Virus record (IMG/VR): IMGVR_UViG_2510065010_000001
Location: 64,001-128,000 of that record
Source of the DNA: a virus
Lineage: Duplodnaviria > Caudoviricetes
Reading direction: 5' to 3' (one strand)
DNA length: 64,000 bases
Each line of letters starts with the position of its first letter. The first letter of the stretch is position 1. The position numbers and the translations under genes are program-made. Positions 12,848 to 49,370 of this stretch are shown one piece after another. Under the pieces are notes generated by a model, which was not told the origin of the DNA, did no database searches, and saw nothing but the letters and a program-made list of their open reading frames with translations.

Positions 12848-12950
12848 GCGAAGCGCTCCACCCCCGGTTAATACCCGCATTCCATGTATTCAGGTATTCC
12901 AAGAGATTCACGCACACAGGCGAAGCCTCCACCCCCGGCTTATACCGGGG
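12848..12950. promoter_or_regulatory. two ~28-bp direct repeats, each with a GAA-triloop mini-hairpin; candidate phage RNAP promoters
   Basis: GCGAAGCGCTCCACCCCCGGTTAATACC (12848) and GCGAAGCCTCCACCCCCGGCTTATACC (12920). Confidence 0.5.
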
Positions 12951-12993
12951 TAGAGTATGGGACTGAGAATAAGAATTTTAATAACTGTCAGAA

Positions 12994-14871
12994 CTACGCG
13001 GCAACTTTTAAGTCATCTGGTGTAAACCAAACAAACTGAACGTTGTCTTTGATCCAAGTGAAGGCTTCATCATCGTTGAGTAGTAACTCACCCATTGCAG
13101 CCCTGTCCTTTACACACATCCCAATGATGTTATCCATCTGATAGATAACACACGTTTCGGATTCAGATAAAACGCTGGCTTTAGGATTCGCTACGTATTC
13201 AACTTCCATAAGTAAATGGTCACGCACCCAAACTTTGCTGTCGCCAGCGTCAGACCAAACGGCTGGGTAAACCTTTTGCCCCAAGGCTCTAAACATCCCT
13301 ATTTCAGCTTTGGTAATAAATTGCTTCACTCGATGTTCGCAATGCACCACTTTATTAAGGATGTTTGGTTTGTTGCACAGGATATGCAAATATTCCGGGT
13401 TTGTCACCCGACTGCACACAACATACAACAACCCGTGAGTTTTTCTCCCACTATTCAGGTGATACACCAGCGGTTCGTTGATTGTTAACCCTTGGCACTT
13501 CCAAGGAGTCATTGAATGACACAGTACGCCGGGTAAAGCCCTGAATTTACCAATGGGTTTACCCTTTTTCCCAACAGGAAGAGGAACATCAACAGGGCTA
13601 ATCCAGTGAAGTTCACCATCTGGTAACTCAATCTGAATACGTGTCGGTTCAAGCTTCTTGATTATTCCAACTGTTCCGTTAACCAGCTTCTCGCTGATGT
13701 TCACTCGAACCATGAACTTTAACCCAGTTGCCAGAGTCATCTCTTCACTTAAAGGAGCCACTTCTTTGAGAATTCGTGCTCTCAAAGATTTAAGAGACTC
13801 ATTATCTGAAGTCGCCATCCCCATATCAGCAGTGTAAGTTCTGATCGTCTCACCCCGCTGCTTCGCAGCTTGAAGAACAACTTTGTTGTGGTCTGCTACT
13901 TCTTTATTAGTATTGAACAAGTGGATCGCATCATCTAATGATGCCAAGTCCAAACGTTCGTTACTTCTAAAGTTAATAAAGTCGTCACCTCTTTGGGTCC
14001 AGACTCGACTTAGTAACCGAGATACTTTTGGGTGATTAAAGTTGTTACCGTCACCCATCTCGTTTAGAGCTTCCACAAACCAACCATCACTACTTTTCTG
14101 ACGATGATTAGTAACGAGCGAAATTGCAGTTGCTCTCCAAGGTTGCTCATACTTTCTACGCTCTAATTCAAATGGTCCTTCACCGTCTACTAGCATAGAG
14201 CCGTATAGTCGAACATCATCTTTGTGAGAGCCAGCTTGGTGAAACTTAGCCTGCTCAAATGCCAAACTGTTAAAAACCTGCCAGGGAAGATTTTCTTGTT
14301 TGTCAATGATTAACAACTGACGGAAGTCACCAGTCAGGACAAATCGAACCCGACGGTTTGGACAGCATCGTTTAATAACTTGGTAAGTAAGTACCAAGTC
14401 CTCAGATGAAACCATTGACATTTCATCAATGAACACAACTAAGTCGCATTTCTCACGAGGATCAAAGTTAGCTGCAACATCTTCGGCTCTAGCGATCGTG
14501 CTGACACGAATCCAATGGTCACTGCAGAAATCGCGCATTCCAGCAGGAAGTGTAGACCCACCTGCACGTAATCCTGCAAACTTATTAAGTGTGCCTTCAC
14601 CTTGAGCGTTTCTGGCAGCAACACCTGTGGATGCACACACACGTACTTCATGTCCCTGCATTTTGAGCAAAGTTCTAGCTGCATTAATGATGAAAGTCTT
14701 TCCACTTCCACCTCTTCCTAACAACGCAATGCAATCATATACACCTGACCCAATTGTTGACATAGCTACTAATTGGTCGTCACTCATCGTTTCCCAGTAA
14801 GGCAAATCTTGAATTGCCTCGTTTTGATTAGATAACCAGGCTTTTGCAGCTAGCAAATCCATCTCTTTCAT
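12994..14871 (-). CDS. Pif1/RecD-like SF1B DNA helicase
   Basis: GRGGSGKT, ASTGVAA, IDEMSMV, GDFRQL, NHRQ, NGTVG, T.WKCQGLT, YVVCSRV. Confidence 0.92.
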   Translation of the reverse strand: MKEMDLLAAKAWLSNQNEAIQDLPYWETMSDDQLVAMSTIGSGVYDCIALLGRGGSGKTFIINAARTLLKMQGHEVRVCASTGVAARNAQGEGTLNKFAGLRAGGSTLPAGMRDFCSDHWIRVSTIARAEDVAANFDPREKCDLVVFIDEMSMVSSEDLVLTYQVIKRCCPNRRVRFVLTGDFRQLLIIDKQENLPWQVFNSLAFEQAKFHQAGSHKDDVRLYGSMLVDGEGPFELERRKYEQPWRATAISLVTNHRQKSSDGWFVEALNEMGDGNNFNHPKVSRLLSRVWTQRGDDFINFRSNERLDLASLDDAIHLFNTNKEVADHNKVVLQAAKQRGETIRTYTADMGMATSDNESLKSLRARILKEVAPLSEEMTLATGLKFMVRVNISEKLVNGTVGIIKKLEPTRIQIELPDGELHWISPVDVPLPVGKKGKPIGKFRALPGVLCHSMTPWKCQGLTINEPLVYHLNSGRKTHGLLYVVCSRVTNPEYLHILCNKPNILNKVVHCEHRVKQFITKAEIGMFRALGQKVYPAVWSDAGDSKVWVRDHLLMEVEYVANPKASVLSESETCVIYQMDNIIGMCVKDRAAMGELLLNDDEAFTWIKDNVQFVWFTPDDLKVAA

Positions 14872-14912
14872 ATGTCCCCCTTAAGACTTGAATCGTTCAA
14901 AAGTAAACAAAC

Positions 14913-14934
14913 AGGGGAGGAGTTACCCTCCCCT
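14913..14934 (-). terminator. hairpin/terminator between the RNAP gene and the helicase
   Basis: AGGGGAGG/CCTCCCCT stem followed by GTTTGTTTACTTTT on the minus strand. Confidence 0.5.
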
Positions 14935-14940
14935 ACCGAG

Positions 14941-16041
14941 CTAAAACAAATCAAGGTCAATCTCTACAACCTCTCCTTGTATCGCTACTGCAATCGTTTT
15001 GCAGAACTCCCAGCATTGAGCAACTGTGATTGATTTCTCAACCAAGCTCAAAGATGGGTTTATGGTTGTTAGCCAACTTACGAAGTTGTCAACCATCGAC
15101 TTGTGTGTGTCTTCTCCAGCAACATCAAACTGCCCTTTGGATATTAGTGCTGCCATCTCTGCAGTCAACTTAATAAAATCTTCCGGGCTTTCATAGAAGT
15201 CAGTCACTTCTCCAGACTTTGAGATGTTCCTACAGGCTGCAACTTCCTTAGCTGCTGAATAAATATCCAGTGCACAAGCACCGTTCATATCAGCAGCGTT
15301 CAGTTCTTTCTCAAACTTTGCTATCACTTCTGGGTTCGTTGTACCCAGATCCATACCCTGGATTACTGGAATCAACGTACCAAAAATGACATCGTATGCT
15401 TCCCAGCTTAGACCTCCTAGAGGTACTTCGTAAATCTCAGCAAGGATCAGGACTAAAGATTTGTTCTTTGTGAACTCTGGAGGAGTCCAATCTGGGAACA
15501 GTTTCTTTAGGTCGTCTTGCAAAGACCAGACAAGGCTCAAGTACAGATCAGCTGTTAAGAACAATCTATGCACCCAACCAACAGCCTCTTGAAACATCAA
15601 GGTGCTTCCTTCCAGCATCCCAGGCAAGCTCTTTCGAGTTTGCTTGTCTCGTAAATCAGTCGAGCATAAGTCAATGCTGAGATTCTTTGCACCCAAACCA
15701 CGTTTCTTGGCTACTGCCTTTTCAGAAGGTACGTTGTAGTGGTCACCCCAATAGGCACCACCTGGTACTAGTTGATCTGAACCTGTCCTTTTAACTACGT
15801 TACTAACAACATCATCAAATGTCGTTAACTCTAAGTTGGAGTCTCCTGCATCGCAGAATACTCTGTTATCACCATCACAGTCACCCGCATCACGTACATT
15901 ACCGATCGGGCTAATGTACGCAGTATCTTCTTCAAACCAATCTGCAAGAGGATGATCATCGTAAATGACACGAACCTTCATAATAGAAGGTGTTGTCATG
16001 GGAGCACGACTCATCATTACTTTCTTTCCGTCTAAACTCAT
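14941..16041 (-). CDS. putative phage RNA polymerase catalytic subunit (C-terminal half of the beta'-like barrel)
   Basis: GGAGGA SD before MSLDGKK; SRAP followed about 40 aa later by AGDCDGD (15868-15882), matching the R-x-P..DxDGD signature of two-barrel polymerases. Confidence 0.72.
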   Translation of the reverse strand: MSLDGKKVMMSRAPMTTPSIMKVRVIYDDHPLADWFEEDTAYISPIGNVRDAGDCDGDNRVFCDAGDSNLELTTFDDVVSNVVKRTGSDQLVPGGAYWGDHYNVPSEKAVAKKRGLGAKNLSIDLCSTDLRDKQTRKSLPGMLEGSTLMFQEAVGWVHRLFLTADLYLSLVWSLQDDLKKLFPDWTPPEFTKNKSLVLILAEIYEVPLGGLSWEAYDVIFGTLIPVIQGMDLGTTNPEVIAKFEKELNAADMNGACALDIYSAAKEVAACRNISKSGEVTDFYESPEDFIKLTAEMAALISKGQFDVAGEDTHKSMVDNFVSWLTTINPSLSLVEKSITVAQCWEFCKTIAVAIQGEVVEIDLDLF

Positions 16042-16122
16042 ATGTCCTCCAAGAAAATGAGTAAGCGGAGCCAAACTGACTCCGCTCGGTGTACGACGTG
16101 ATATTGGTCATTGAACTGTTAC

Positions 16123-19100
16123 TTAACTGAAAACTCGTTCCATCAAAGAATGAACCGAGTTCTTACGAGCAGAATCCCGCACCCACACTTCATTTACAGG
16201 GATACCTGGTAACGCCATCGTCTTTGCCTGCATGGACATGCGGCAGAACGCAGCAGATTTTACCAAAGCACCACTCTCAGTCAACTTCGTAAGAGCACCC
16301 TTTGCGCGACCCGCAAGCTGTAGATATTCAGGACTATTCGTTGCAGCACCGTTGATGTATTGAACAACCAGTTGAGTGATCAGGTCACTCATTCCATCTA
16401 CACTTGCAAAATCTGTATTTGCATCCTGTGCTGCCACAGCGGGTAGGTACACACTGAAGTGCCCCTTAATGCCACAGCAAACACTGAATACACAATTTCT
16501 AAACATTGGAGCCAGAAGTTTCAACAGGTTACCTGCATTAACCGGGTTATTAACCAGGTCACGAAGCTCCTCGGTTTGCAGCAGACTAGCTGCATTTGAG
16601 TCGCCTAGCATATACATTGGTAAATCGTTTCCACCTTTGGCTTTGATGGTTTGATTCTTTGCCATCGCAAAGAATACAGCAGATTTGTGGACCTGCTTGA
16701 ACCCATCCTTTACTAGTCGTTGCGCAAACGCAGGATCTTCTGTCTCAACAGCACGGGCTACTCCAGCCATCAAAGGTGTTTGTCCTACACTTGCACGAAC
16801 ACTTGACAACTCAGCTTTCACTGGTTGCCACACTGCACCCGTCTTATTTGTCCCTGCATAAGACCAAGCACGTTGTACAAAATACTCCACACCTTCAACA
16901 GTGTAAAACACAAGTACGTTGGTCTTATGGTTTTCAATGCACCCGTCAGCATAAACTTCAATGCTTTCTGCATTACTTGGGATGGCATACCCTACAGAAG
17001 TAGGTTCAACCGTTTCCCAACCTTTTGCACCCTTGTACATTTTCTTCAGCACAGTAGTCCACTCTGCAGAAGCGTCTGCATGTCTGAACCAAATTGCGCG
17101 TCCGAACTTGGCTTCAAACCAGTTGATTAGCTGCTGGTATTTACCCATTACAGCCAGAACTGGTGACCACTCCAGATAATTCGCACCCTCAACCCCGACT
17201 AAAGAGTTACACTCTTCAATCAGTTTCAAACCTTCTGCATCGGCATTATTAATTGCAGTGCATACTGCAACATCTGCGATAGATTGCACCAGGTCTAGCC
17301 ACTTATTTGTGTCTGCAAAGAATACAGACCGTGCATTCAACTCTGCGTTGAGGTTGTTGTGAACAACGTCAGGTGTGTAGCGGGAAAGCATACACTTGAT
17401 ATTGTTCCGACCTTTGATTTGATGTTCTCTAGTTTGTGTCACTAACACAACTTGCAGAGTGGTGCGGTTCCCTGCAACTTTAGCCAACCGCCAGCGGATC
17501 TCTAGCAAGTAAGCATCAGGAGTGTTATTTGTGATGGTGTGTCTAAAACAACCCTCTTCTGTAATGTAAGGTACATCACAGATAGGTTCCTTATCAGCAA
17601 TCCGCAATGGTTGTTCCATGCGAATCACTTGCCAGCCTCTACGTTCAAATTGCTGACCACCAACCAATGACACTACAGCACCCGCTAATTCCTCCTCCTT
17701 AATTACTCCTGGTACATTAGGTTGTACCGTTTGCGTATGTTTGACTAACAGTGTTGGTCCTTCACCCCAGTAAACTGCCATACCAGCAGGAAAAGTGGCA
17801 TGAGGTGAAACTACTGCTTCCACAACCCAGTTATTACTTGATTCAACAGATTGACCAAAGCGTTTCAAGCCTCTGGTACTTCCTCCTTCCAGCAAACCAA
17901 CACAAGCTGCGTCCATTGCTGTACGCTTAATCAGCTTGGCTAATTTAGAAGACAACCCGATAATTAGATGCTGAGAAGCAGTCTTAATAACCTCCTCGTC
18001 AGAACCACTCAAACCAAACTGTTGACGGGCATATTCTGCAATTGCAGCTTCAGTGTTGTCAGTTAGCTGACTTAGCACTTCCCGCACAAACTGCTCACGC
18101 AGCTCGCTTGGTACGTGCTTTGCTTGGATGCAACTGCGACGACCATCGATAAACTGACCCCGTGGCATACGAACTAAGTTGAACCCTAACAAAGCACTAC
18201 GGTCCACAACATGCTTTGCAGGTAACTTTGCACCCTTTATTTGGACACCGTTCTTCTCTACATCACCAAGACTGGTTACTCCAATCTCACGGTTGTAAAT
18301 AACTTTGGTGTTCCATTCACCGTCTACTTGATACCGAGCAAACCCAAAGGGCATATCGGTTGCAGATAATCTGGTGACCGTAACATAACGGTCGTAGTAA
18401 GTGCGATCGCCATCATAGGCTTGCGCTTCATCATCTGACTGCACTGGCAGCTCAACGAACATTTTCTTAGATACCAACTGACCCAATTCAGGAACAGGAG
18501 CAGTTAGATATTTTGCACCCAACATGACCAATCCGTACAGGAATGTGCCATAGCTATTAACTAAGGACATGTCTTCTGCAGGAATGCGTACTCCACGACC
18601 ACGACCAGTCAGGCTGCTAACCAACAGCATGTTATTAAACCGTAGGTTACGGCTAACTTCAAACACGCCATCCTTAGCAGTGACTCGGAATTCGTACTCG
18701 TCGATCCACACGCTGAAACCATCTTCTCCGGTGGCAGACACTTGAATAGGTGAGACACCACCTTTACAGAGTGCTCCTGCTAACCAATCAATTACAACTG
18801 CAACGTCAGCTTGTGTTGCATTGAAATCAAAACAACGGGTCCAGTTGTGATCGACGTATACGATGCGGTCTTGCACCCCAAACACTTGCTCAATCACTGG
18901 ACGAGCAAGTGCATAAGTTAATAACTTGAACTCTACTCCTAAGTTGGCGTAAACACCTGTCAAGAGAGCTTGACGTACACACCATTCTTCTAGCGCGTGT
19001 GTGTGAGCTAACCTCTTAACAATTTCACCGTCCTTAATCAAAGAACGGTATTGAGACATTGCAGTACCCAATACAGAGGGTTGTTGTACAAACCGACCGT

Positions 19101-19452
19101 ATTGTTTCAGCACGTCAAGTCCTGCAATGTGCAGACTGTTGTTACGGGTGTGATCTGCAAAGTAGAACACTTCATCCAGCTCAATAGGAAAAGTAAGTTG
19201 AGCTGTTTGTCTTAAACGCAAATAACACCATGCAGCAAACAAAGAAGCTTGCACAGAGCTTACAGCGTTAATAACGTTGTTGCTCAGAATACGACCAGCA
19301 AGCTTCTCACCCATAACAGCGGTAATAGCTTCACCAGGTGTGAGCTTACTTACAGCTGCGATATTGAATTGTGTGCGACCTTTCATAGCGTAGAAAGGAT
19401 CAGCAAGTACGTTCCAGTTGTTGTTCAATTGTAAATCCATGATGTCCTCCAA
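16123..19452 (-). CDS. putative phage RNA polymerase large subunit (beta-like barrel plus start of the beta'-like barrel)
   Basis: 1109 aa; QIKGRNNIKCML resembles the beta K..R..K motif; C-terminal CRMSMQAKTMALPGIPVNEVWV resembles the first strands of the beta' barrel; directly upstream of the DCDGD gene. Confidence 0.6.
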   Translation of the reverse strand: MEDIMDLQLNNNWNVLADPFYAMKGRTQFNIAAVSKLTPGEAITAVMGEKLAGRILSNNVINAVSSVQASLFAAWCYLRLRQTAQLTFPIELDEVFYFADHTRNNSLHIAGLDVLKQYGRFVQQPSVLGTAMSQYRSLIKDGEIVKRLAHTHALEEWCVRQALLTGVYANLGVEFKLLTYALARPVIEQVFGVQDRIVYVDHNWTRCFDFNATQADVAVVIDWLAGALCKGGVSPIQVSATGEDGFSVWIDEYEFRVTAKDGVFEVSRNLRFNNMLLVSSLTGRGRGVRIPAEDMSLVNSYGTFLYGLVMLGAKYLTAPVPELGQLVSKKMFVELPVQSDDEAQAYDGDRTYYDRYVTVTRLSATDMPFGFARYQVDGEWNTKVIYNREIGVTSLGDVEKNGVQIKGAKLPAKHVVDRSALLGFNLVRMPRGQFIDGRRSCIQAKHVPSELREQFVREVLSQLTDNTEAAIAEYARQQFGLSGSDEEVIKTASQHLIIGLSSKLAKLIKRTAMDAACVGLLEGGSTRGLKRFGQSVESSNNWVVEAVVSPHATFPAGMAVYWGEGPTLLVKHTQTVQPNVPGVIKEEELAGAVVSLVGGQQFERRGWQVIRMEQPLRIADKEPICDVPYITEEGCFRHTITNNTPDAYLLEIRWRLAKVAGNRTTLQVVLVTQTREHQIKGRNNIKCMLSRYTPDVVHNNLNAELNARSVFFADTNKWLDLVQSIADVAVCTAINNADAEGLKLIEECNSLVGVEGANYLEWSPVLAVMGKYQQLINWFEAKFGRAIWFRHADASAEWTTVLKKMYKGAKGWETVEPTSVGYAIPSNAESIEVYADGCIENHKTNVLVFYTVEGVEYFVQRAWSYAGTNKTGAVWQPVKAELSSVRASVGQTPLMAGVARAVETEDPAFAQRLVKDGFKQVHKSAVFFAMAKNQTIKAKGGNDLPMYMLGDSNAASLLQTEELRDLVNNPVNAGNLLKLLAPMFRNCVFSVCCGIKGHFSVYLPAVAAQDANTDFASVDGMSDLITQLVVQYINGAATNSPEYLQLAGRAKGALTKLTESGALVKSAAFCRMSMQAKTMALPGIPVNEVWVRDSARKNSVHSLMERVFS

Positions 19453-19476
19453 GAAGTAAAATGTGAGTGAAAGAAA

Positions 19477-20661
19477 CTAAGCAAACGGATTTGGTCTTTT
19501 AGAGATGTTGCCGATGGGCATACTTTCGATAGGTTCTTCAACATCTTCTTCAGACTCTTCGCAGTAGTCATCATCTGCTACACCAGAACTAGCTGTCTCT
19601 ATGTCCATAAGTTGAAATTCATCGTCTTCTTCAACGGAAAGGTGCTGAAGCTTTTCGAGAATTGCAGCAGAGGTCATTTGAGTAGCAGTAGGCTGGGTAA
19701 CAGGAGTTTGAGTGTTAGCAGTTACTTCAACTTTGCTCTTTTGAGGAAGAGGAGTTTCAGCAACTTTGGTTGCAACAGTTGGCATTCTGCGTTCTACTTT
19801 TGGAGTAGGAATACCAACTTCACGACGGGACCGTGCTTGCATCACCTCTTCAGCAAGCTTTTCTTTTAGGCTCTTACCACCAACCATCAAGTCTGCTCTA
19901 ACACGGAGTTTGTTCAACCCAGTAGCTAGAGCGGTAGAGCTACCAACTTTCCGACCACCAACTAGGTAAGCTCCGTTAAATGCAGCACCCCAGAACGGTT
20001 GACCGTCAACACCATCAAAGGATTTTGTGTACTGAGGAAATCCAACCATGCAAACTAGAAACTGCTCTCCAGCAGCAACACCTAATTCGTCTGCCAGGTC
20101 GTTCATTAACTCCGTAAACTGCTGACGGGCAGCATCGTGATAGTCAGACCAGTTATCAACTGTTCTATTTGCAGTAGATAACTGCATAGAAACTGCTGGA
20201 CGGTCTTCCCCCTTGCGATTAAAGGGTTCTCGATACATTACAGGTACAGGCACAACTAAGTCGTCATCACCATAAAACTCTGCTTCTACAAACAGGTCTG
20301 GTTTGACAACCGCGTTCTTACCCCATTCACCACAGGGTAGATACTTAGACTCTTTAGCAAAAGCAGCATTACGAATGCTTGGTGATGCGTAGGTCAAGTT
20401 ACCGTCTTTATCTAGACGAACTGCAAAGACACCTACACATACACTTTTCGCTCTAAACTGCTTTGCAGGTGCAACGGCAAGGTCAGAGCGGAATACAAAC
20501 AACTCCCGTAGGCGGGAGGGAACCATGTTGAGGTCAACATCTTCGATGTCAACACCAACCGGACGTAATCCTAAGTCTTCTCCGATAGAAGGGCTACCAG
20601 CTCCGCTATCTCCTAGACCCTGTTCAATTAACTCAACAATTGTCTCGCTTAAAACAGTCAT
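19477..20661 (-). CDS. hypothetical early protein with acidic C-terminal tail (SSB or RNAP cofactor-like)
   Basis: 394 aa; acidic disordered tail ending NPFA; in operon with the RNAP genes. Confidence 0.7.
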   Translation of the reverse strand: MTVLSETIVELIEQGLGDSGAGSPSIGEDLGLRPVGVDIEDVDLNMVPSRLRELFVFRSDLAVAPAKQFRAKSVCVGVFAVRLDKDGNLTYASPSIRNAAFAKESKYLPCGEWGKNAVVKPDLFVEAEFYGDDDLVVPVPVMYREPFNRKGEDRPAVSMQLSTANRTVDNWSDYHDAARQQFTELMNDLADELGVAAGEQFLVCMVGFPQYTKSFDGVDGQPFWGAAFNGAYLVGGRKVGSSTALATGLNKLRVRADLMVGGKSLKEKLAEEVMQARSRREVGIPTPKVERRMPTVATKVAETPLPQKSKVEVTANTQTPVTQPTATQMTSAAILEKLQHLSVEEDDEFQLMDIETASSGVADDDYCEESEEDVEEPIESMPIGNISKRPNPFA

Positions 20662-20843
20662 CGTTTTACTCTCCGTGTTTGAGTTAGAAATCTTTTCGTC
20701 AGCAGCAATTGCTTCGTCTTCTTCAAAACGCCAGAAGGCTTATGAATAGAAGACTAGCTGTGTTTTCTTCGCAAGAGCGATCATTTCGTGATTGATGTTC
20801 AACATTGGATTTCTCCTTAAAACAAGATTTACGGCTGTAAAAA

Positions 20844-20956
20844 CAGCCACCCATAAGTTGAACTTCTTGAACGGTTCAACTTATGGGTGGCTGGGCGAGA
20901 GTTGCCCCTCGCCAGAATCTTATATATAGGGGGCTGTATATACAGCCTCCTATATA
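20844..20956. promoter_or_regulatory. cluster of long inverted repeats upstream of the RNAP operon
   Basis: 20-bp stem CAGCCACCCATAAGTTGAAC/GTTCAACTTATGGGTGGCTG (20844-20893) and a 34-bp near-perfect palindrome centred on CTGTATATACAG (20923-20956). Confidence 0.7.
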
Positions 20957-20962
20957 CGTACC

Positions 20963-21646
20963 TTACTTAGTAGGTGGGTTACCAAACACAAACGTATCCT
21001 TCTTCTCTACCGCTAGTCCCAGTAGTAGTAGCATACGCATACCTTCTACCCCGAACGTAGTAGTAGCTACCTTGGTAGGTAGGTTCCACACACCACGTTC
21101 TACTAGACTACGGCGTGTCTGCCACACTGCTAGTACACTAGGCTTCCACCGGATGTACTTCATCATGTAGGCTTCTACATCCTTAACAAAGGACAGTCTA
21201 TGCTTACGCTCTGTGATGTCCAACCACATTACAGGTACGTCTGTGTCCTTCTGTAGGTGCATGTGTGCACCATTGAGACTAGACTTCACTTGGTACCCAA
21301 ACAGATGACCACCATCAGTCTCTACCACTAGGTCGATCTTCAGGTCATCATCTGCCTTGCTACCAGTAGGTGCAAGGTACACATCCTTGACACCATCAAA
21401 GCATCCTAGTAGTAGGTCACGTACCAGTTGCTCTGTTGCTCTACCCTTGTTGTACTCAGGGGTGTTGTATCTGTTACTCATCTTCATACGCTTACGCCAG
21501 TTACCTGACGCACTGTTGTTGTACATCACGTCTAAGAACAGCTCTTCTGTTAGGCTGTACTCTCTACCGATGATATGCATGTTGTCTCTCCAAAAGCAGT
21601 GAAGAAACAAGATGATTGGCAATGGCTTAATCGCCCTGCTGTTCAC
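20963..21646 (-). CDS. PD-(D/E)xK endonuclease-like protein (true start probably further downstream)
   Basis: GRATEQLV..KIDLVVE..GYQVKSS. Confidence 0.65.
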   Translation of the reverse strand: MNSRAIKPLPIILFLHCFWRDNMHIIGREYSLTEELFLDVMYNNSASGNWRKRMKMSNRYNTPEYNKGRATEQLVRDLLLGCFDGVKDVYLAPTGSKADDDLKIDLVVETDGGHLFGYQVKSSLNGAHMHLQKDTDVPVMWLDITERKHRLSFVKDVEAYMMKYIRWKPSVLAVWQTRRSLVERGVWNLPTKVATTTFGVEGMRMLLLLGLAVEKKDTFVFGNPPTK

Positions 21647-21987
21647 CTCGTCTCACCGAAGAGAGAATTAATCTGAAAACTAAAAGACCCCCTATCCCCT
21701 ATCCGTATAAATTACCCAATTTTTTAGCGCCCCAATTTTCTACACGGAAATTTCCTCCGTCCAGAAAATTATACTCAACCCACTATTTCTCTAACCACCC
21801 TCACATTCACAGGAAACTTACTTCATTCCTTAGAGCACTCAAACAAAGAATCCAGCTTATTAAGCTGAATCTTTCTACTCACTGTCTATGTGCTACACCA
21901 TTAATAGAGCAATCTTTAACATCTATAAAAGCTCAACGCTAACTCTTCTGCTAAATTATCGTTTGTTCCAGTTTTTACTATTAGAAC

Positions 21988-22654: not shown

Positions 22655-22661
22655 AAAATTC

Positions 22662-42289: not shown

Positions 42290-42341
42290 TTTTTTTAATT
42301 CCGTAACCGTTCCCAGCGTACTAATTCCTGACTGATAAATT

Positions 42342-43652
42342 ATGGTAACAACTATTCAGCCGACGACAACTCCCTATGAATATGTGGGTGATGTGCCTGC
42401 ACTAGGGTCTTTGCAGCTAACTCGTTTAGCTAAATCATTTGAAGAAATAGACTCCCAAGGATTAGAAGATCTTTTTCCAACCGTTCAGTCTGAAGAGCGT
42501 ACTGTCGTTATTGAGACGATGCGTGAAGGTTTAGGAATTATGCCTATCGTTCAGATGGGTGTTCCTGCCGGAAACTTCCTAGAACCTGAGCGTGTAGAAA
42601 GACGTTACGTTCAACCCGTATTTTTGCGGGAAGACGATTTCGTTGACCAGGCGTTGATTAACCAACTTCGTAAGGTTGGAACTCTCAATGAAAAAGATCC
42701 TCCTTTACAGATTATTCAGCGTCGTGTTCAGCGACTAGTTAATCGCCACAACCGGACTCGAAATTTGCTGCAAGCAATGTGCTTACAGGGAGGTATTAAC
42801 TACACGGACCCTCGCACAAAAGCCACAATTAACGTTAGTACTCAAATTCCCACGCACAACTACTTCCGATACGACGGGTGGGATGCAACTCTAGCTTCTG
42901 GTGCTGCGATTGGCACTACTGGCTACGTTGCAGCTAAAAACTTGACGAACAACAAAGGACGTAAGGAAGCATTACTGTTTACAGATAAATCTGGTCGGGC
43001 GGGTGTTCCCTGGTCCCACCCACAAGCAGATCTAGTCCGGTGCTTACGTTTTCTACGACAGTATTGCTACAACAGCAACAAAGTGTTGCTCACGGACATG
43101 GTTATGTCCCGTGATTTGTACACTGTCATTCAAGAGAACGAAATCATTCAAGCTCAGATGGGTAGCGTCGGAGTCATAACGGTTCCAGGTGGAACAAACG
43201 GGGCAGTTAATGAAATTGCAGCAGCTTCGTCTCGTGTAACACCTCCAAGTATCCGCTTTGACAGTGCTGGAGATGTTCAGTCGATTGCAGGGTTGAACAT
43301 TCGTCTGATCGACTCAATGTATCGAGATCCTGTCGATAATGTCATTAAAAAGATGTGGCCATCTAACTTGGTGGCTGTGATTGCTAGATCACATCATCAA
43401 GACCGTAGTGCATCTCTTGGTCAGACAATGGAACCAGTTGGAGAATCTCCAGATGGAACTGCAGGTCTGTGGATGCGTACTGGTCCTGACCAAATGCCAC
43501 CTGCTGTACCTGGTAGAGCAATGCAGCTTGGCAACTGCTTCCTCCCATACGTAACTTATCCTCAGTGGATTATGTTACTGACCGTTGCCGATACCGGAAT
43601 GATCGATGAAACTCTCATCTTGCGTTCTGACCTTGAATACGGCACGTTCTAG
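42342..43652 (+). CDS. major capsid protein (HK97 fold, gpE-like)
   Basis: Position after the protease; LEDLFP..GIMPIVQMG, RTRNLLQAMCLQGG, C-terminal FLPYVTYP. Confidence 0.85.
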   Translation: MVTTIQPTTTPYEYVGDVPALGSLQLTRLAKSFEEIDSQGLEDLFPTVQSEERTVVIETMREGLGIMPIVQMGVPAGNFLEPERVERRYVQPVFLREDDFVDQALINQLRKVGTLNEKDPPLQIIQRRVQRLVNRHNRTRNLLQAMCLQGGINYTDPRTKATINVSTQIPTHNYFRYDGWDATLASGAAIGTTGYVAAKNLTNNKGRKEALLFTDKSGRAGVPWSHPQADLVRCLRFLRQYCYNSNKVLLTDMVMSRDLYTVIQENEIIQAQMGSVGVITVPGGTNGAVNEIAAASSRVTPPSIRFDSAGDVQSIAGLNIRLIDSMYRDPVDNVIKKMWPSNLVAVIARSHHQDRSASLGQTMEPVGESPDGTAGLWMRTGPDQMPPAVPGRAMQLGNCFLPYVTYPQWIMLLTVADTGMIDETLILRSDLEYGTF

Positions 43653-43687
43653 TTTTAATAAGCATTTGGAAATTTAGGAGATTATTA

Positions 43688-44389
43688 ATGAGTGCCACAT
43701 CAGGACAACGGTTTGATTATCAGGCATACACTGAGGGTCAGCGTGGTGGTCTGAGTCTTTATCCGTACTGCGGAATTATTAACGGTTTACAAGTCAGTAC
43801 CGTTGCTATCGCAGGTACAGGCAACGTGAACTTGACAATGAACGTGTCAGCGGGTGCTGCAAGACTTGATGGACAATACTGTTCACTAGCTGCTGGAATT
43901 ACGACTTTGGTTCTTCCAGTAGGATTAGACTTAAACGTAGGCGACTACACATTTAATGTTTGGCTGAACGCAAGACGCCTGGTTCCTGCACAAGCTTCTG
44001 CGCCAGGTGCGCCTGCTACAAATGATAAATACATCAAGGTAGTAGATAAAGGGTCATATCTAGAGGTAGATGATATTCTCTACTACACTGGAAGTGTGTG
44101 GGCTAAATATAACGCTATATCAGGACCCCCTGCATTGCAAGGACATAACAACCTTCCTCTTAACGAGGTCAATGCGACCATCCACAACGCAACATCCAGT
44201 AACCAATCTTTTGCACTCACAGCAGAAAAGCCTGTTTACCACAAGACAAATTATCCTGTGGGTTTATCATCACCTGGAGCCGCTTACTTAAGACAGCCAG
44301 CAGCCATAAAAATTGCGACAATTAATATCGCTAACGGCGGTACTATCACGTCTACCATTTATGGTGATGAAGTTCGCATTCCAATTTAG
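43688..44389 (+). CDS. virion structural protein (head decoration-like)
   Basis: AGGAG SD; GIINGLQV..VSAGAARLDG beta-rich; follows the capsid gene. Confidence 0.55.
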   Translation: MSATSGQRFDYQAYTEGQRGGLSLYPYCGIINGLQVSTVAIAGTGNVNLTMNVSAGAARLDGQYCSLAAGITTLVLPVGLDLNVGDYTFNVWLNARRLVPAQASAPGAPATNDKYIKVVDKGSYLEVDDILYYTGSVWAKYNAISGPPALQGHNNLPLNEVNATIHNATSSNQSFALTAEKPVYHKTNYPVGLSSPGAAYLRQPAAIKIATINIANGGTITSTIYGDEVRIPI

Positions 44390-44409
44390 TAAGTTAATAA
44401 GTAACCACT

Positions 44410-44910
44410 ATGACCACATATAGATTTTTAGTTAAAACACAAACGTCTGTTATTGTAAACGGTCAGCGTCGAACGTTTAACTCAGTCGGAGAAGTTGCAG
44501 AGTTTCCTGAAGACATTGGGCGTTTAATTCAACAACGACAAGTCTCTGGTAGTGAACACCTTGATTTTATTGGGTTTCACCCACCAGATGATTCAGTTAT
44601 TCCTCTATCGGCTCCAACTACTCCTACTACTGATGAATTAAATGTCAACGAGGAAGAGGAGGAAGAGAAAAACATTGAAGAAGAGGAGCAAAGTCTAGAT
44701 GCTGACGAAGATAAATCATCTGGATCAGATGATCAGACTATCATAATTCCTTTAGATGCCAATGCTCATTGGAGTACTGTTCGTTCCTTCGTTTTAGACA
44801 TGGAACAAGAGGAACAGTATGAGATGATTGCAGCAGTTAAAGCCGCATATGACTATCCAAAGGTTAAAGAAGAGTGCGATCGTATCTTGAAGAAAGCTGG
44901 TCGTATTTAA
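44410..44910 (+). CDS. hypothetical protein with acidic linker
   Basis: 166-aa ORF in the head operon. Confidence 0.65.
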   Translation: MTTYRFLVKTQTSVIVNGQRRTFNSVGEVAEFPEDIGRLIQQRQVSGSEHLDFIGFHPPDDSVIPLSAPTTPTTDELNVNEEEEEEKNIEEEEQSLDADEDKSSGSDDQTIIIPLDANAHWSTVRSFVLDMEQEEQYEMIAAVKAAYDYPKVKEECDRILKKAGRI

Positions 44911-44928
44911 CATACTCGTACTTCAGCG

Positions 44929-44959
44929 ACCGACTAAGCTTAAATTTGGTCGGTTTTTT
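44929..44959 (+). terminator. intrinsic terminator after the head genes
   Basis: ACCGACTAA..TTGGTCGGT followed by a T-run. Confidence 0.7.
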
Positions 44960-44961
44960 AA

Positions 44962-46575
44962 ATGGATTTTACTGACAGATTTATTATTGCAACACCTGCT
45001 CTTTCTGGCGTGGACTTAGAAACACTAACAGATGAACAGCTGGAAACACTTTCTCCGCCTGTCAAAGATTTTTCTAGGATGGTGCGGGAGTACTCTGCAC
45101 TGCTTTCTAGAAAAGGTTCTAAAAGTATCTATTTAATATGCACAGAGCAGGTAGACCCACGAATTGCTCTGGTTTTAGCTGGTGCAAGAGATAAAGTAGG
45201 TGTCAGATTGTTTCCAGACTTAAACTCTGTTAAACAAGTAATGTTTGGGAAAACGGACCCTTCTGAATCGGCATTTGTCAATGCTGAACGTAACATGTTT
45301 ACACAAGGGGTTCGGCGTATTGCGGCTGCTCTAACGGCTGCTTTATTAATTGGACAACTTGCTCAAATCGAAGAGCAAGCAAAACATTCTGAGTTTTTAG
45401 AAAAATCAGCCTTAGCTGACCTTCAACGACTTCTAGAAGTCCCGGACATTGCTGTTGCTACAGCACAAAAACTAGAAGGTGAAGGAGAAGTCAAGTCTTT
45501 TTTCTTTCAGCCATTTTCTTTGGAGTTAGGTTCTAGAATTCTTCGAGCAGAATTCTTCATGCCATCGACAACTACATCGACTTGGCAGATAGTTAACAAC
45601 TATACGGGTAAATTTACTACTGCAAGAATCGTTGCAGATCTAGCTGATGCGATTAACTCTTACACTCTCACCCAACAAACGAGCAATATCATCGCAGCTC
45701 CTATCCTTGGTGACGAAAGTACACTCTACAAAATTGAATTTAAGGCGAGACACCGAGATGCCTCTATCGCCTGTGAAGTCATTACGGCAAGGTTTACATT
45801 TACCGACAATCCCAATGAACCTCTCCCATTCAAATGGGGAGTTAGTCCAGCCGGATTAAACGACCAGTTTATCAACTCGTTACTTTTAGCTGTTCAACAA
45901 GGAAAAGCATCGGTTGTTGGTGTCACTGCAGCAGATAGAGAGCGTGGCGAACCAACTGTTTTGTACTTCAAACGAGCACCTAAAAACTCTAACGGAGATA
46001 TTCTGGACTATGAAGGGGACGTAATTTCTTCCTCTATTTGGGGTGCTCAAGGTAATCTTACATTCCGAGTCTCACCCATGATGGATGAGAATGTAACTCT
46101 GCCTGTGCCTTACCTGACAAATGTTGATGCTATTCAACAAACAAAGTTAGATGCTATGCGTCCAAATCAGGTGGCAGAGCTGTTATTAAATCAGTTATTT
46201 CAGATTAAAGGGGACACGTTGGCGTTAGGGGCGTTGATAAGAAATGACTATCCAGACAATATCAACGCGCTAGTTGCCTTAGAATTAATACCTTTCTCAG
46301 TGACCAATCCAGAAGCCTGGTTAATTTTAGATTTAATTGATATTCCACAGGATATTTTGGTTGCTGTAGGAAATCTACAAGCACCGTTAACACCCTTTAG
46401 TTCTAAACCTCGTTCTGTTCGCGTGGAGTCCAAATTTTACGCTGCGCTTGCTCAAAATATTCGGACTACGAATCAACAAGTAACTGCAGTTCCTAAAGTG
46501 GTTAAGTCTCCTATTTCTGACAGGTTGCAAGCAGTTAGAGATGACTCCACTTATAGAGTCTTACGCAGACTATGA
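44962..46575 (+). CDS. virion protein, probable neck/head-tail connector
   Basis: 537-aa ORF; called from position only. Confidence 0.5.
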   Translation: MDFTDRFIIATPALSGVDLETLTDEQLETLSPPVKDFSRMVREYSALLSRKGSKSIYLICTEQVDPRIALVLAGARDKVGVRLFPDLNSVKQVMFGKTDPSESAFVNAERNMFTQGVRRIAAALTAALLIGQLAQIEEQAKHSEFLEKSALADLQRLLEVPDIAVATAQKLEGEGEVKSFFFQPFSLELGSRILRAEFFMPSTTTSTWQIVNNYTGKFTTARIVADLADAINSYTLTQQTSNIIAAPILGDESTLYKIEFKARHRDASIACEVITARFTFTDNPNEPLPFKWGVSPAGLNDQFINSLLLAVQQGKASVVGVTAADRERGEPTVLYFKRAPKNSNGDILDYEGDVISSSIWGAQGNLTFRVSPMMDENVTLPVPYLTNVDAIQQTKLDAMRPNQVAELLLNQLFQIKGDTLALGALIRNDYPDNINALVALELIPFSVTNPEAWLILDLIDIPQDILVAVGNLQAPLTPFSSKPRSVRVESKFYAALAQNIRTTNQQVTAVPKVVKSPISDRLQAVRDDSTYRVLRRL

Positions 46576-47447
46576 CACGTATTTTTCCCACGCCACGACA
46601 ACTTGTTTTGGGCACGATCGTTGCCCTAGCAAGTCACCCACGAATACAAAATCCGGGTATATATTACATTGGTAGCAACACGGAAGAAAAGATAGTTTCG
46701 TGGAGGTCTTATGGTGGCTACGAACTAGAGGAAGAAGGGCTGGTTTGTTCAGTTTATCCAGCATACTCATCGAGAACGACGGCTGGTTCTGCACCCCCAT
46801 TAGGAAAACAAAAATCTATCCAAATAGAACCATACAATTTAGGTTCTAGAATGGATGCTTCTTCGCTAGAACAAGGCACTTACAACTTAATTGTGGAGCT
46901 TTCATACCGAGATGCTAACTTAGGAGAAATCGTTAAATTAGGCTACGATTTTATTCAATCTACGGATGGAATTCCTCCACTAAATACACCTCACGGCACT
47001 AATGTGATGCCGCACGAAGGAACTTCACTTAATTTAGCTTCAGAAGATTTAACTGCTTTTCAAGCAGAACCGCAAGGGTTGCAACGTCAGTTTCAAACTG
47101 TAGAAATTAAAGTCAGTCCGGCAGAAGAGTTGCTAAGAGAGTACACAGAATTATTACGTTTGGTGTTAAACGATATACCACATATTCGCCCTTACACAAT
47201 TCGCTCTTCGAGAGTCGTAACTATTGATTTTCCTACATCTGCTTGGACAAGAGAATCTGAAGATCTTTTGTTCCACACAGCGTATATTCATTGGGAACTA
47301 ACTTTGTATCCTCCCGGAAGCTGGAAGGATGTTTACTTTATGCCTGTGACTTCGATTTCTGCAACAGCTCAATCGGAGCAGCAGCAAATATTATCTCCTT
47401 ACTATTACGTTCAATTAGGGGATGGGACTAATCTAAGAATTCTTTGA
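46572..47447 (+). CDS. probable tail completion/terminator protein
   Basis: 291 aa, before the sheath gene; called from position and a beta-rich pattern. Confidence 0.45.
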   Translation: MTRIFPTPRQLVLGTIVALASHPRIQNPGIYYIGSNTEEKIVSWRSYGGYELEEEGLVCSVYPAYSSRTTAGSAPPLGKQKSIQIEPYNLGSRMDASSLEQGTYNLIVELSYRDANLGEIVKLGYDFIQSTDGIPPLNTPHGTNVMPHEGTSLNLASEDLTAFQAEPQGLQRQFQTVEIKVSPAEELLREYTELLRLVLNDIPHIRPYTIRSSRVVTIDFPTSAWTRESEDLLFHTAYIHWELTLYPPGSWKDVYFMPVTSISATAQSEQQQILSPYYYVQLGDGTNLRIL

Positions 47448-49276
47448 GGTCTAAAATGAGTTCATTCCGGTCTATCGGAGATATTGAATTAATAGGTTCA
47501 GAGTCAATCGACCTAGACTATGACAGGTTGATACTTTGGGATGCATCTGCGTCTGTTAATAAAACTAAAGCAATTGTTCCCAGGTCTTTAGTAAACATAC
47601 TTAACAACAGTGGAGTTACTTCAGTTAATAACTTAAGTGGCACAGTAGTTTTGACTCCGAATATTATTGGTGCCGCAAACTTAGTCCACACTCATACTGC
47701 CAGTCAACTACCACAACTTGTCGGGGCAACCTCTACGGTAGCAGGTTCATCTGGATTAGTACCTCCACCAGCAATTGGAGATAATTCTAAGTTTCTATCA
47801 GGTGATGGTACTTGGAAAAGTATCTCAACTGGTTATACGAACCAAGATGCAATTGCAGCAGTTGGCTCAGCTTGGCAGGATACTTCCAGCATTGACTTCA
47901 CTTACAACTCAGGTTTAGGACAACTCAGTGTTGCAGTTGTATTTGGTAATCAAGCTGGTCAAGTTTGTCAAGGTAATGACTCTCGATTGTCTGATAATAG
48001 AACACCTATTGACGGTTCTATTACTAACGTTAAAGTTGCAACAAACGCTGCTATTTCTTGGACTAAATTAGACAAAACAGGTAGTGCTATTTCTGATATT
48101 AATGGTTTGCAGAATGCACTTGACCTTAAGATTTCTACGGTAGAGAAAGGAGCTGTTAATGGAGTTGCATCCTTAGATAGCAATGCTAAATTGCCCACTG
48201 AGCAATTACCTGAATCCGTCATCGGTTCCGTTAGTTATAAAGGAGTTTGGGATAGTAGTACAAACACACCTGCTATTCCATCAGCTACTACAACACAAAA
48301 GGGTTGGTACTATGTCGTTTCTAATAACGTAGCTAGTAATCACGGGTACCCTAATGTTCCTACAATCAGTTTTGCTGCAGGCGACTGGATTATTTGTAAC
48401 GGGTCTACTTGGGATAAGCTAGACGCTACTGACCAAGTATTTACCGTCCACGGTAGAACAGGCAATATTATTGCTCAAACAGGAGATTATACAACTGACC
48501 AGGTAACAGAAGGAACTAATAAATACTTTTCCAACACTCTCGCAAGAACAGCCCTGTCGGGCGGAACCGCAATTAGTTATAACTCTTCCACAGGTGTCAT
48601 TGCTGTTAATCCAGATAATTTGATCGTTATTAGCTATGATCAATCTTCAAAGCCTTCTAGCCCAACAGTCGGACAGTATTGGCTAGAACGGACAAGTTTT
48701 GGATTACCTGTCACTCTTTGGCGCTATGTTTTGTTACACGGTACAACTCATGCTTGGGTTACTGAACAAACATATCAAGTTAGTCAGAGAACAAGTCAGA
48801 CTTCAGTTAATGCAAGTGTCGGGACTACTTGGACAAATTTTAGTGGTGTAGACCAAGCGCCATCTACTTATGCGGTGCCTTTAATTTCACAGATTGGCGA
48901 TGGAATAGTGTGTTTAAAAGCTTTCTGGAACTTAAATTTATCCAGAACGTATGCGTCTAACGCCTCTTATTTTCCTATTTTTGGATTAACTTTTACAACG
49001 ATAGGAACGATTAATGATGCTGCAATGGTTACTTTACTAAATTTACAAGGAAACCCAACAAGTGGTTCTTTAATAGATAAAATTTACGAAGTCGATTTAG
49101 ACCCAACAAATACGACATACTCGTGGACTTATTTTAGTAGTGTTAGTAACTATACTATTCCTTCAATACTAAGACCTTACTATAAGTTTAATGCTGGTGG
49201 TGGCTCGGCTGGAGACAACCTTACTGTGTACAAACCATTTATGGGTGTTTTGTATAAAGGTTATAAATCCCCTTAA
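47444..49276 (+). CDS. tail/neck fiber-like protein
   Basis: GVTSVNN, GLVPPP..KFLSGDGTW, GNDSRLSD.RTP, NGVASLD, YKGVWD..N.P and VHGRTG fiber motifs. Confidence 0.8.
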   Translation: MRSKMSSFRSIGDIELIGSESIDLDYDRLILWDASASVNKTKAIVPRSLVNILNNSGVTSVNNLSGTVVLTPNIIGAANLVHTHTASQLPQLVGATSTVAGSSGLVPPPAIGDNSKFLSGDGTWKSISTGYTNQDAIAAVGSAWQDTSSIDFTYNSGLGQLSVAVVFGNQAGQVCQGNDSRLSDNRTPIDGSITNVKVATNAAISWTKLDKTGSAISDINGLQNALDLKISTVEKGAVNGVASLDSNAKLPTEQLPESVIGSVSYKGVWDSSTNTPAIPSATTTQKGWYYVVSNNVASNHGYPNVPTISFAAGDWIICNGSTWDKLDATDQVFTVHGRTGNIIAQTGDYTTDQVTEGTNKYFSNTLARTALSGGTAISYNSSTGVIAVNPDNLIVISYDQSSKPSSPTVGQYWLERTSFGLPVTLWRYVLLHGTTHAWVTEQTYQVSQRTSQTSVNASVGTTWTNFSGVDQAPSTYAVPLISQIGDGIVCLKAFWNLNLSRTYASNASYFPIFGLTFTTIGTINDAAMVTLLNLQGNPTSGSLIDKIYEVDLDPTNTTYSWTYFSSVSNYTIPSILRPYYKFNAGGGSAGDNLTVYKPFMGVLYKGYKSP

Positions 49277-49370
49277 AAGTTAATCCCAGATTGAACACCC
49301 TTGCGTTCAAACCTACAGTTACAGTGCTGATTAAAGTGCTCTAAGAATCCCCGCACTATTATTTGGCACT

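Follow-up and report, generated by a model that had tools for sequence, protein, structure and literature searches.

Does a phage-like element in a cyanobacterial chromosome carry its own machinery for transcription, and does it carry it twice? The question is raised by a window of 64,000 nucleotides (positions 64,001 to 128,000 of IMG/VR record IMGVR_UViG_2510065010_000001), which corresponds to G000:C1:682804-746803 within one 5.53 Mb cyanobacterial contig and is part of a phage-like island of about 210 kb. Two loci of the window bear a DxDGD-type motif: a minus-strand pair of genes, o1109 and o377, and a plus-strand gene for a giant protein of 3311 residues at the head of the virion genes. 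A preliminary description of the window took both for highly divergent RNA polymerases (RNAPs). The answer reached here is graded. One polymerase is established by the fold of a model, a second is likely but unproven, and the transcription programme that would connect them is a hypothesis. In its complete form, the proposal is moderately probable: a split RNAP working with a helicase, together with an injected giant that carries a second polymerase, with a hand-over between them as in Thermus phage P23-45.

A DxDGD-type motif by itself is weak evidence of a polymerase. A search for D[FYCNW]DGD in the open reading frames (ORFs) longer than 300 residues of the host genome returned eight matches in seven ORFs. 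Unrelated ORFs account for four, a single FG-GAP protein contributing two of these; the host RpoC1 gives one, and the two phage genes supply the rest. The identity of each candidate was examined through its relatives, its additional motifs and its predicted fold.

The minus-strand genes run in the order o394, o1109, o377 and o625. The ORF of o377 as listed spans 14941-16074, and its real start is the ATG at 16041. Neither Pfam nor PHROG provides a family for o394, o1109 or o377, and no sequence in the PDB matches the pieces of the split enzyme in phmmer and profile searches. Likewise, tblastn of o377, o1109 and o394 against 50,697 phage records (E ≤ 1) gave nothing named, the ESM Atlas held no usable match to o377, and a scan of the genome contigs with a family alignment revealed no relative. 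An exhaustive profile search gave 63 proteins at E ≤ 1e-3, 43 of them at ≤ 1e-10, the family size being counted as representatives at 50% clustering. Most relatives are single chains of 1390-1800 residues in which the o377 part forms the C-terminus; 47 of the 61 new representatives are single chains of at least 1280 residues. The two window genes align end to end with these chains, and the description of the enzyme as split is thereby borne out. Against the unsplit 1442-residue protein of the viral record G001, o1109 is 41.5% identical over 1127 columns to residues 1-1091, and o377 is 46% identical to residues 1095-1433.

The sequence features of the family are those of two-barrel polymerases. 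The GDCDGD motif, at residues 64-69 of the minus-strand ORF 14941-16074, is kept in every relative that covers it: GDxDGD occurs in 53 of the 61 new representatives, and the remaining eight are fragments of 118-490 residues. K-x-R-x3-K, R-x-P and GDxDGD show no variation among the 28 full-length members. The available portion of PMC2919709 defines eight residues common to all two-barrel polymerases, seven of which are covered by the family invariants. The Arg and Pro of R-x-P (R446 and P448 of Rpb1) correspond to SRAP in o377, are invariant as R1112/P1114 of family member P0019 and align with NRAP of the host RpoC1. The two lysines K979 and K987 of Rpb2 are matched by K676/K682 of P0019, together with R678, at a spacing of 6 rather than 8; the equivalent basic motif of o1109 resembles the R-x3-K-G of the host RpoB stretch GDKMAGRHGNKG. 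As for Rpb2 D837, no invariant Asp lies upstream of the lysines and D710 is invariant downstream; the alignment of this part is weak. No Pfam family was found for the 28 full-length members, the family profile had no match among PDB sequences, and the ten family clusters looked up are unnamed or called "hypothetical protein". This is a polymerase family without a Pfam or PHROG name.

The fold was assessed with AlphaFold on residues 243-1442 of the unsplit G001 homolog, which stands in for o1109 and o377 (44% and 46% identical to it, respectively, in the 37-row folding alignment). The model has a mean predicted local distance difference test score (pLDDT) of 88.4 and a predicted template-modeling score (pTM) of 0.88. 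It contains two double-psi barrels in an RNAP-like arrangement, as seen in this 44-46% identical unsplit homolog. Foldseek against the PDB returned 60 matches at E ≤ 1e-3, and all among the matches listed are Thermus beta' or Rpb2-type second-largest subunits. In the VIA comparison against 48,161 chains, the model matched ZmRDR2 with Z 11.7 (461 residues aligned, root-mean-square deviation (rmsd) 5.0), QDE-1 with Z 11.4 (379 aligned, rmsd 4.3), the largest subunit of Pol I with Z 10.9 and gp96 of P23-45 with Z 10.2 (320 aligned, rmsd 5.6). Lower scores were obtained for P74 gp62, a homolog of gp64 (Z 8.7), for the non-virion enzymes of phiKZ and AR9 (Z 8.2 and 8.0) and for gp66 of phi14:2, which is a crAss-like phage (Z 6.6, 548 aligned). 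Matches in BFVD include crAss-like giants, P23-45 and nucleocytoviral RNAPs. A right-hand fold of the Pol A-like kind, as in the N4 and T7 type, did not appear, the matches listed for the split-enzyme model being two-barrel enzymes only, and a phiKZ/AR9-type make-up of four or five subunits does not apply to a single chain that is cut once here. A PolD-like DNA polymerase was also considered and set aside, as the island has PolA and a primase and the matches listed include no PolD chain. Collectively, the model clearly identifies the split enzyme as a polymerase by its fold, and o1109 and o377 are, as modelled, the two halves of a two-barrel RNAP of the single-chain type. Template-directed RNA synthesis is the activity predicted for it. 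Because the best structural matches, RDR2 and QDE-1, are RNA-dependent enzymes, the type of template is not fixed by the fold, which tells against a plain assignment to transcription from DNA.

The position of the cut is itself informative. Isolated double-psi barrels align to model residues 813-928; o1109 ends at the equivalent of residue 849 and the initiator Met of o377 corresponds to residue 851, so that, on the model, the gene cut falls inside the catalytic barrel. The two genes lie in different frames, and a GGAGG sits 4 nt before the ATG of o377. Eight stand-alone relatives of o377 (357-373 residues, 57-69% identity) share its start Met and keep the motif series SRAP...ISP...AGDCDGD with which it begins. 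The ribosome-binding site and these conserved stand-alone relatives argue for a stable arrangement rather than a broken gene.

The second candidate, the giant, is a considerably harder case. Scans of the whole protein against Pfam and PHROG gave a single family match, PHROG 31006, of unknown function. Its homologs comprise Ma-LMM01 gp080 (3562 residues, "hypothetical"), seven proteins from a large collection and five IMG/VR loci, and one more was recognised by a DNA pattern, for a total of 14 sequences; the G006 giant was found by such a pattern after a part of the giant used as query had given no match. The 14 aligned sequences measure 3211-5177 residues and are 19-67% identical. All 14 contain the triad LGD[FY]DGD, which in the window reads GDFDGD at residues 2272-2277, and the DxDGD chain proposed for the head of the virion block is present as an intact ORF. 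Other nearly invariant positions are a basic block (K983-R998), R1293/K1301, R2058..G2069, R2212..P2216 and L2271-D2277. The fusion to a phospholipase D (PLD) domain has also held up. Its two HxK...N motifs are nearly invariant, and Pfam PLDc_2 matches residues 335-449 with E 5.1e-6 and a score of 26.8 bits, just under the cut-off of 27; the scan of all 3311 residues gave no match to it, and the canonical Asp of the HKD motif is not at its usual distance. The Ma-LMM01 homolog carries the UniProt name "PLD phosphodiesterase domain-containing protein" in the BFVD listing.

Three further lines of evidence point to a polymerase in the central part of the giant. The order of its motifs is that of the host RpoC1, where GKRVDYSGRSVI, NRAPTLH, HPL and NADFDGD follow one another, so that several collinear beta'-type motifs are present beyond the triad. 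When this region was aligned locally by hhalign to the split family's catalytic barrel, the probability was 76% (E 2.3e-5, 90 columns). Finally, the split-enzyme model matches segment 2 of Ma-LMM01 gp080 in BFVD with E 4.5e-5 and probability 0.92, slightly better than the segments of crAss-like virion polymerases (1.5e-4 to 2.4e-3). The gene lies directly before those for endolysin, portal and head proteins. In the proposed mechanism the giant would travel inside the virion and enter the cell by injection. Its central part would then be another two-barrel polymerase, again highly diverged, and the PLD domain at its N-terminus would act as a phosphodiesterase.

The two genes also occur together in related phages. 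A DNA pattern for GDxDGD had 11 occurrences in five related viral records, against one for the reversed control. Giant and split-family gene are both present in all four records of at least 101 kb, namely G001 (195 kb), G004 (216 kb), G005 (101 kb) and G006 (190 kb); the 44 kb fragment G002 has the giant only, and the 32 kb fragment G003 lay outside the ORF inspection. Contigs of matching length (137,349, 220,425 and 581,901 bp) recur between the protein tables of the two families, and three more co-occurrences may be presumed from this. In Ma-LMM01 the pair is gp064 and gp080, and in MaMV-DC it is ORF65L and ORF82L. Ma-LMM01 gp064 (1673 residues; L013, 43811-48832) contains QRTP...NP...EGDADGD at residue 1348. 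In BFVD the polymerase model matches best to a segment of a MaMV-DC protein (E 5.7e-18, TM-score 0.43/0.59), which we infer from segment length (2 x 839 against 1677 residues) to belong to ORF65L (L027, 49224-54257), the homolog of gp064. The split-family profile finds no match in gp064, and what ties the family to the Ma-LMM01 group is the motif in gp064 together with this BFVD match. On these grounds gp064 and ORF65L look like the non-virion polymerase of their phage group, and the gene pair seems to be a hallmark of Ma-LMM01-type phages. The co-occurrence across related genomes that the preliminary description had proposed as a check is thus found in the four longer records, in Ma-LMM01 and in MaMV-DC. 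It was also observed that a 42-bp repeat array separates gp064 from gp054-gp063, early genes according to the available portion of PMC5780444, and that gp064 is their immediate upstream neighbour.

Whether two RNAPs of the P23-45 kind reside in one phage hinges on the giant being a polymerase, and several results speak against this. Whole-profile hhalign of the giants with the split family aligned 14 columns at 3% probability, and the profile comparison of host RpoC1 with the giants likewise gave 3%. The R-x-P motif appears in the giants as R-x-G-A-P, two residues longer, with R2212/P2216 nearly invariant and R-S-P-P-P in Ma-LMM01. The AlphaFold model of residues 1900-2900, from an alignment of 13 rows, has pLDDT 63, falls below 50 in the motif region and shows no barrel; this poor model gave no Foldseek match in the PDB at E ≤ 1e-3 and, in VIA, only coiled-coil matches to a helical hairpin at model residues 385-475, results that are uninformative on the fold. 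The ESM Atlas held no usable match to residues 830-2750. The best hhalign candidate for a beta-like barrel (residues 1262-1353) reached a probability of 0.08%, in a comparison that is uninformative because its positive control, host RpoB against the split family, also failed. In addition, packaging in the virion is inferred from the position of the gene alone. Because the fold failed, the identity of the giant as a polymerase rests on its motifs, one profile alignment and one indirect Foldseek match.

These observations are those expected if only the split enzyme were a polymerase. The giant would then be a PLD-bearing ejection or internal virion protein, its GDFDGD a metal site, and the phage would have a single non-virion polymerase like YonO of SPbeta. 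The almost wholly helical model without RNAP matches, the weakness of the profile comparisons outside the motif, the beta-like barrel that was not located and the occurrence of DFDGD in unrelated, calcium-binding FG-GAP repeats of the same genome all agree with this explanation. It leaves unaccounted for the collinear motifs, the hhalign and BFVD matches and the strict pairing with a second polymerase in related genomes, and the failed fold came from 13 rows only. Weighing both sides, a giant without polymerase function is rather unlikely, and a polymerase in the giant fairly probable. Thus, of the two proteins that the preliminary description had called polymerases, the split enzyme is upheld by its fold, and the giant only at the level of motifs, together with indirect structural evidence.

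The split enzyme is coupled to a superfamily 1B (SF1B) helicase, which is encoded by the next gene here and fused to the polymerase elsewhere. A Walker A motif downstream of the polymerase, taken as helicase fusion, is present in 18 of the 53 motif-bearing representatives, and P0018 is also such a fusion. G001 has the same operon order, with a 388-residue gene, the polymerase and a 713-residue helicase (identities 34%, 41.5%/46% and 42%). In G006 the polymerase and helicase form one protein of 2319 residues, collinear with o1109, o377 and o625. In G004 and G005 the polymerase family and helicase domains lie within ORFs of 4243 residues (L010:5070-17798, minus strand) and 3452 residues (L011:3622-13977, plus strand), the former with two Walker A motifs, at residues 681 and 3796. 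SF1B helicases translocate 5' to 3'. For this reason a helicase placed on the non-template strand would move along with the polymerase, both having one direction, and would open the DNA for it, while the o1109 and o377 halves would reassemble into a sigma-independent, non-virion phage RNAP. Strong hairpins were also noted between genes of the polymerase operon, at 14910-14937 and 16063-16087 on the minus strand.

A helicase of the Dda/Pif1/RecD type, fused or adjacent, belongs to a group of replication and recombination helicases, and QDE-1 and RDR2, to which the fold is closest among the matches, use single-stranded templates and work alongside helicases or other polymerases. Both facts would suit a polymerase-helicase module that serves DNA metabolism, either making origin primers or R-loops or taking part in recombination-dependent replication with a primosome-like helicase. 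We regard this as improbable. The island has its own DNA-replication module at window +100 to +125 kb, with a DnaG-type primase, PolA with exonuclease, a clamp loader, SF2 helicases and RecA, which makes a replicative role of the split enzyme less likely; this module stands apart, some 85-110 kb away from the polymerase genes. Moreover, the fold relatives in phages, gp64 and gp96 of P23-45 and gp66 of the crAss-like phage, are transcription enzymes (available portion of PMC10770324).

For a split RNAP assisted by its helicase and an injected giant, the expected course would be that the injected enzyme starts transcription on infection and the split enzyme then takes over, by analogy with P23-45. 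The signals that the preliminary description had assigned to such a programme fared unevenly. The proposed class of GAA-hairpin promoters is not sustained: CTCCACCCCCGG has two copies in the 5.5 Mb genome, at 12856 and 12927, hence at one site, and the repeat region shows no folding signal (z -0.36, with 70 of 200 shuffles folding as well). The proposed late motif TTGARCA is weakly enriched in the window (54 copies against 31.5 ± 6.2 expected), mostly inside genes. Three copies fall in the 1530 bp of plus-strand intergenic DNA in the virion block, two of them within a shared 16-nt form (40443-40464, ATTGAGCAGCCTTGCG, and 49285-49306, ATTGAACACCCTTGCG), and none was found in three relatives, in the stretches of intergenic DNA that were inspected beyond their giant genes. 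As a promoter signal the sites are suggestive only. The ribozyme that had been proposed found no match in the window at Rfam gathering scores or at E ≤ 1. Separately, a long hairpin at 12056-12140 matches microRNA-precursor models on both strands (36.8 bits against a gathering score of 84) and is probably an inverted repeat in the intergenic region 11426-12137. A weak consensus scan of positions 12700-26100 counted 16 sigma-70-like sites, where shuffled sequences gave 21.1 ± 5.1, and the start of the polymerase operon had no such site; terminator-like hairpins between 12.7 and 26.1 kb numbered 22 against 10.6 ± 3.7 in shuffles.

The more specific model of the preliminary description, in which the injected enzyme would read the minus-strand block and the split enzyme would read late genes without host RNAP, draws what support it has from the analogy with P23-45 (as described in the available portion of PMC10770324). 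It also has a logical gap for an integrated element: on induction there is no injected enzyme, and therefore host RNAP or newly made polymerase must start transcription. Published work on the group likewise disagrees with self-sufficient transcription, since the available portion of PMC5780444 attributes all three gene classes of Ma-LMM01 to sigma-70-like promoters. MaMV-DH01 has been stated to lack an RNAP (PMC9927357), and no description of an RNAP in Ma-LMM01-type phages was found in the literature, in a search that extended to sources other than subscription journals.

The setting of the genes agrees with a phage origin. The island has a GC content of about 0.41, against 0.46-0.50 outside, and extends roughly from window -80 kb to +130 kb, with tRNA-Tyr and tRNA-Thr genes at its left edge. 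It is a myovirus, a distant relative of Microcystis phage Ma-LMM01. Its major head protein shares 30-32% identity with the counterparts in Ma-LMM01-group phages of Microcystis and in one Microcoleus phage, and matches to this protein are confined to 10 records in the phage collection searched. From 35.9 kb on, the plus strand also encodes minor tail proteins and a baseplate wedge. The host RpoC1 is a 631-residue ORF with NADFDGD, as expected from the split into gamma and beta' that the available portion of PMC2919709 lists for cyanobacteria. Because of the head and tail genes (PHROG matches) and this RpoC1, the label of cyanobacterial myophage holds, and the label "temperate" rests only on integration.

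Here, too, some findings weaken the case. The island yielded neither a tyrosine nor a serine recombinase, all five tyrosine-integrase matches and the one resolvase match of the genome lying outside it, and IS605/TnpB genes are inserted in the island (that at 8690-9913, minus strand, also with a MerR helix-turn-helix domain). Owing to the missing integrase and these insertions, the element may have lost its activity as a phage. A limited search for exact att repeats of at least 18 bp, shared by the island's right end and its tRNA-Thr side, gave none. The o377 gene occurs in one of 90 genomes of the host's order, namely that of the host itself. That the whole is a decaying prophage with no functional programme left, the o1109/o377 split being a pseudogene break, would fit the missing recombinase, the four or more IS605/TnpB-type ORFs in or beside the island and this rarity, but is very improbable given the same split and start in eight relatives, the GGAGG site before the second half, the intact 3311-residue giant and other large ORFs, and the 41-46% identity that the pieces show, over their whole length, to the intact G001 protein.

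Table 1. Positions of the features discussed, in window coordinates unless another locus is named.
Feature	Position	Strand	Remarks
o1109, N-terminal 1109-residue piece of the split enzyme, as modelled: beta-like barrel (DPBB-A) and first strands of the catalytic barrel	16123-19452	-	
K680-x-R682-x3-K686, basic motif of the o1109 beta-like barrel	17395-17415	-	K676/R678/K682 of family member P0019
Spacer of 81 nt between o1109 and o377	16042-16122	-	TAA stop, 7-11 bp hairpin, GGAGG ribosome-binding site, ATG
o377, C-terminal piece (366 residues from ATG 16041), as modelled: remaining catalytic barrel, helical C-terminal domain	14941-16041	-	SRAP...SP...GDCDGD
GDCDGD, catalytic triad motif of o377	15868-15885	-	residues 64-69 of ORF 14941-16074
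o625, SF1B (Dda/Pif1/RecD-like) helicase, gene after the polymerase	12994-14871	-	Pfam AAA_30 2e-13, PIF1 5.7e-8; PHROG Dda-like helicase 8.6e-36
o394, conserved gene heading the polymerase operon	19477-20661	-	34% identity to the 388-residue ORF at the same position in G001
Giant protein of 3311 residues heading the virion block; candidate virion RNAP fused to a PLD domain	25922-35857	+	homologs in 13 other sequences
PLD-superfamily domain, two HKD-like motifs (H211xK213...Q231N232; H417xK419...G436S437xN439)	26519-27271	+	motifs almost without change among the 14 giants
Candidate catalytic barrel of the giant, residues 2058-2290: RKALGDRQQFEGTVGIAIGSFAL, helical insert, RRGGAP, VPAVG, LGDFDGD	32093-32791	+	beta' order; 14 giants
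Pair of tandem repeats (CGCGAAGCG / AGGCGAAGCCT), with CTCCACCCCCGG after each	12846-12950	+	between the helicase gene and ORF 12138-12812
Intergenic TTGAGCA	36506-36512	+	59 nt before ORF 36565
Intergenic TTGAGCA	40449-40455	+	62 nt before ORF 40511, within ATTGAGCAGCCTTGCG
Intergenic TTGAACA	49291-49297	+	80 nt before the sheath gene at 49371, within ATTGAACACCCTTGCG
Virion and lysis block after the giant gene	35933-52190	+	PHROG matches
Endolysin	35933-36481	+	PHROG 8.3e-34
Portal	38282-39799	+	PHROG 1.6e-13
Major head protein	42342-43652	+	PHROG 5.7e-48
Tail sheath	49371-52190	+	PHROG 6.1e-57
IS605/TnpB-type ORFs (OrfB_IS605, Cas12f1-like TNB), four in or beside the island	1259-2650, 8690-9913; L018:4342-5727, L018:11298-12677	-	

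Several other features of the island were recorded. A tRNA-Arg gene (anticodon TCT) lies inside the low-GC island at window 4598-4670 on the minus strand (ARAGORN; Rfam 53.8 bits). Inteins are present in the class II ribonucleotide reductase (L021:8813-13381, minus strand, about window +92.8 kb) and in RecA (L025:1695-3764, minus strand, about +122.7 kb), the former with a LAGLIDADG homing endonuclease. A second giant ORF, of 5284 residues, lies downstream of the baseplate genes at G000:C1:755464-771315 (plus strand, window +72.7 kb), and the genome-wide motif scan found no DxDGD motif in it. Large FG-GAP/PPC-domain proteins are encoded in the low-GC region at window -52 to -40 kb (L016:14112-18854 and L017:3149-5629, minus strand), and on their account the island may be of non-phage nature in its left part.

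The significance of the locus lies first in the enzyme itself. Single-chain two-barrel polymerases are minimal relatives of the cellular RNAP, and few have been studied (YonO, crAss gp66, gp64 and gp96 of P23-45, QDE-1). The family described here would add a further set of minimal two-barrel RNAPs, with a confident model of an unsplit homolog. It stands out in two ways: its catalytic barrel can be divided naturally between two genes, and it is repeatedly found fused to a 5'-3' helicase. Coupling of helicase and polymerase, if true, would be a new way to open DNA for transcription. The matter also bears on bloom-forming Microcystis, as ORF65L of MaMV-DC is the top structural match despite statements that such phages have no RNAP. 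As a tentative and rather doubtful extension, the whole clade of freshwater jumbo cyanophages, including Ma-LMM01 and MaMV-DC, may be self-sufficient in transcription through an injected PLD-fused polymerase and a helicase-driven, sigma-free one; this would contradict the published statements of no RNA polymerase and of reliance on host sigma-70 promoters. Since cultured phage-host pairs exist, the question is directly testable.

Among the known systems, coliphage N4 has a giant injected virion RNAP that is T7-like rather than two-barrel and uses hairpin promoters; the island differs in that its hairpin motif occurs twice only, at one site, with no folding signal. Phage phi14:2, a crAss-like one, is a podovirus of Bacteroidota for which, to our knowledge, a PLD domain has not been reported. 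Its gp66 (PDB 6VR4) resembles the island giant in being a giant multi-domain virion protein whose central two-barrel polymerase is detectable almost only by DxDGD. phiKZ and AR9 (PDB 7OGP, 7S00) likewise pair virion and non-virion two-barrel enzymes, in jumbo myoviruses and with genes in pieces, but their enzymes consist of four or five subunits derived from beta and beta', and their fold matches are weaker. QDE-1 and RDR2 (PDB 7Y7P, 7W84), the best fold matches of the split-enzyme model, are cellular RNA-silencing enzymes, and the likeness is one of fold only, at 10-11% identity. YonO of the Bacillus subtilis prophage SPbeta (available portion of PMC5467207) is, like the split enzyme, a single-chain-type two-barrel RNAP of an integrating phage, YonO itself being that of a temperate one; it differs in being about 100 kDa, unsplit, and without helicase or virion partner, and no sequence match between the two was obtained. 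YonO-like genes scattered in cyanobacterial genomes were noted in 2010, according to the available portion of PMC2919709.

The closest parallel in organisation is Thermus phage P23-45 (available portion of PMC10770324; PDB 8H2N, 8F5M), which has gp96, a virion RNAP fused to the tape measure protein, and gp64, a non-virion RNAP. Both there and in the island, two very divergent single-chain-type two-barrel polymerases would be found, one within a giant virion protein and one free, the giant of the island being a candidate. The enzymes of P23-45 have no detectable sequence similarity to those of the island. Furthermore, the island giant is not a tape measure, precedes the head genes and carries a PLD domain, and its free enzyme is divided between two genes and has a helicase coupled to it, in an integrated element with a cyanobacterial host. 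The conserved pairing, the cut in the catalytic barrel and the coupling to a helicase are new variations on the theme of P23-45, the crAss-like phages and YonO.

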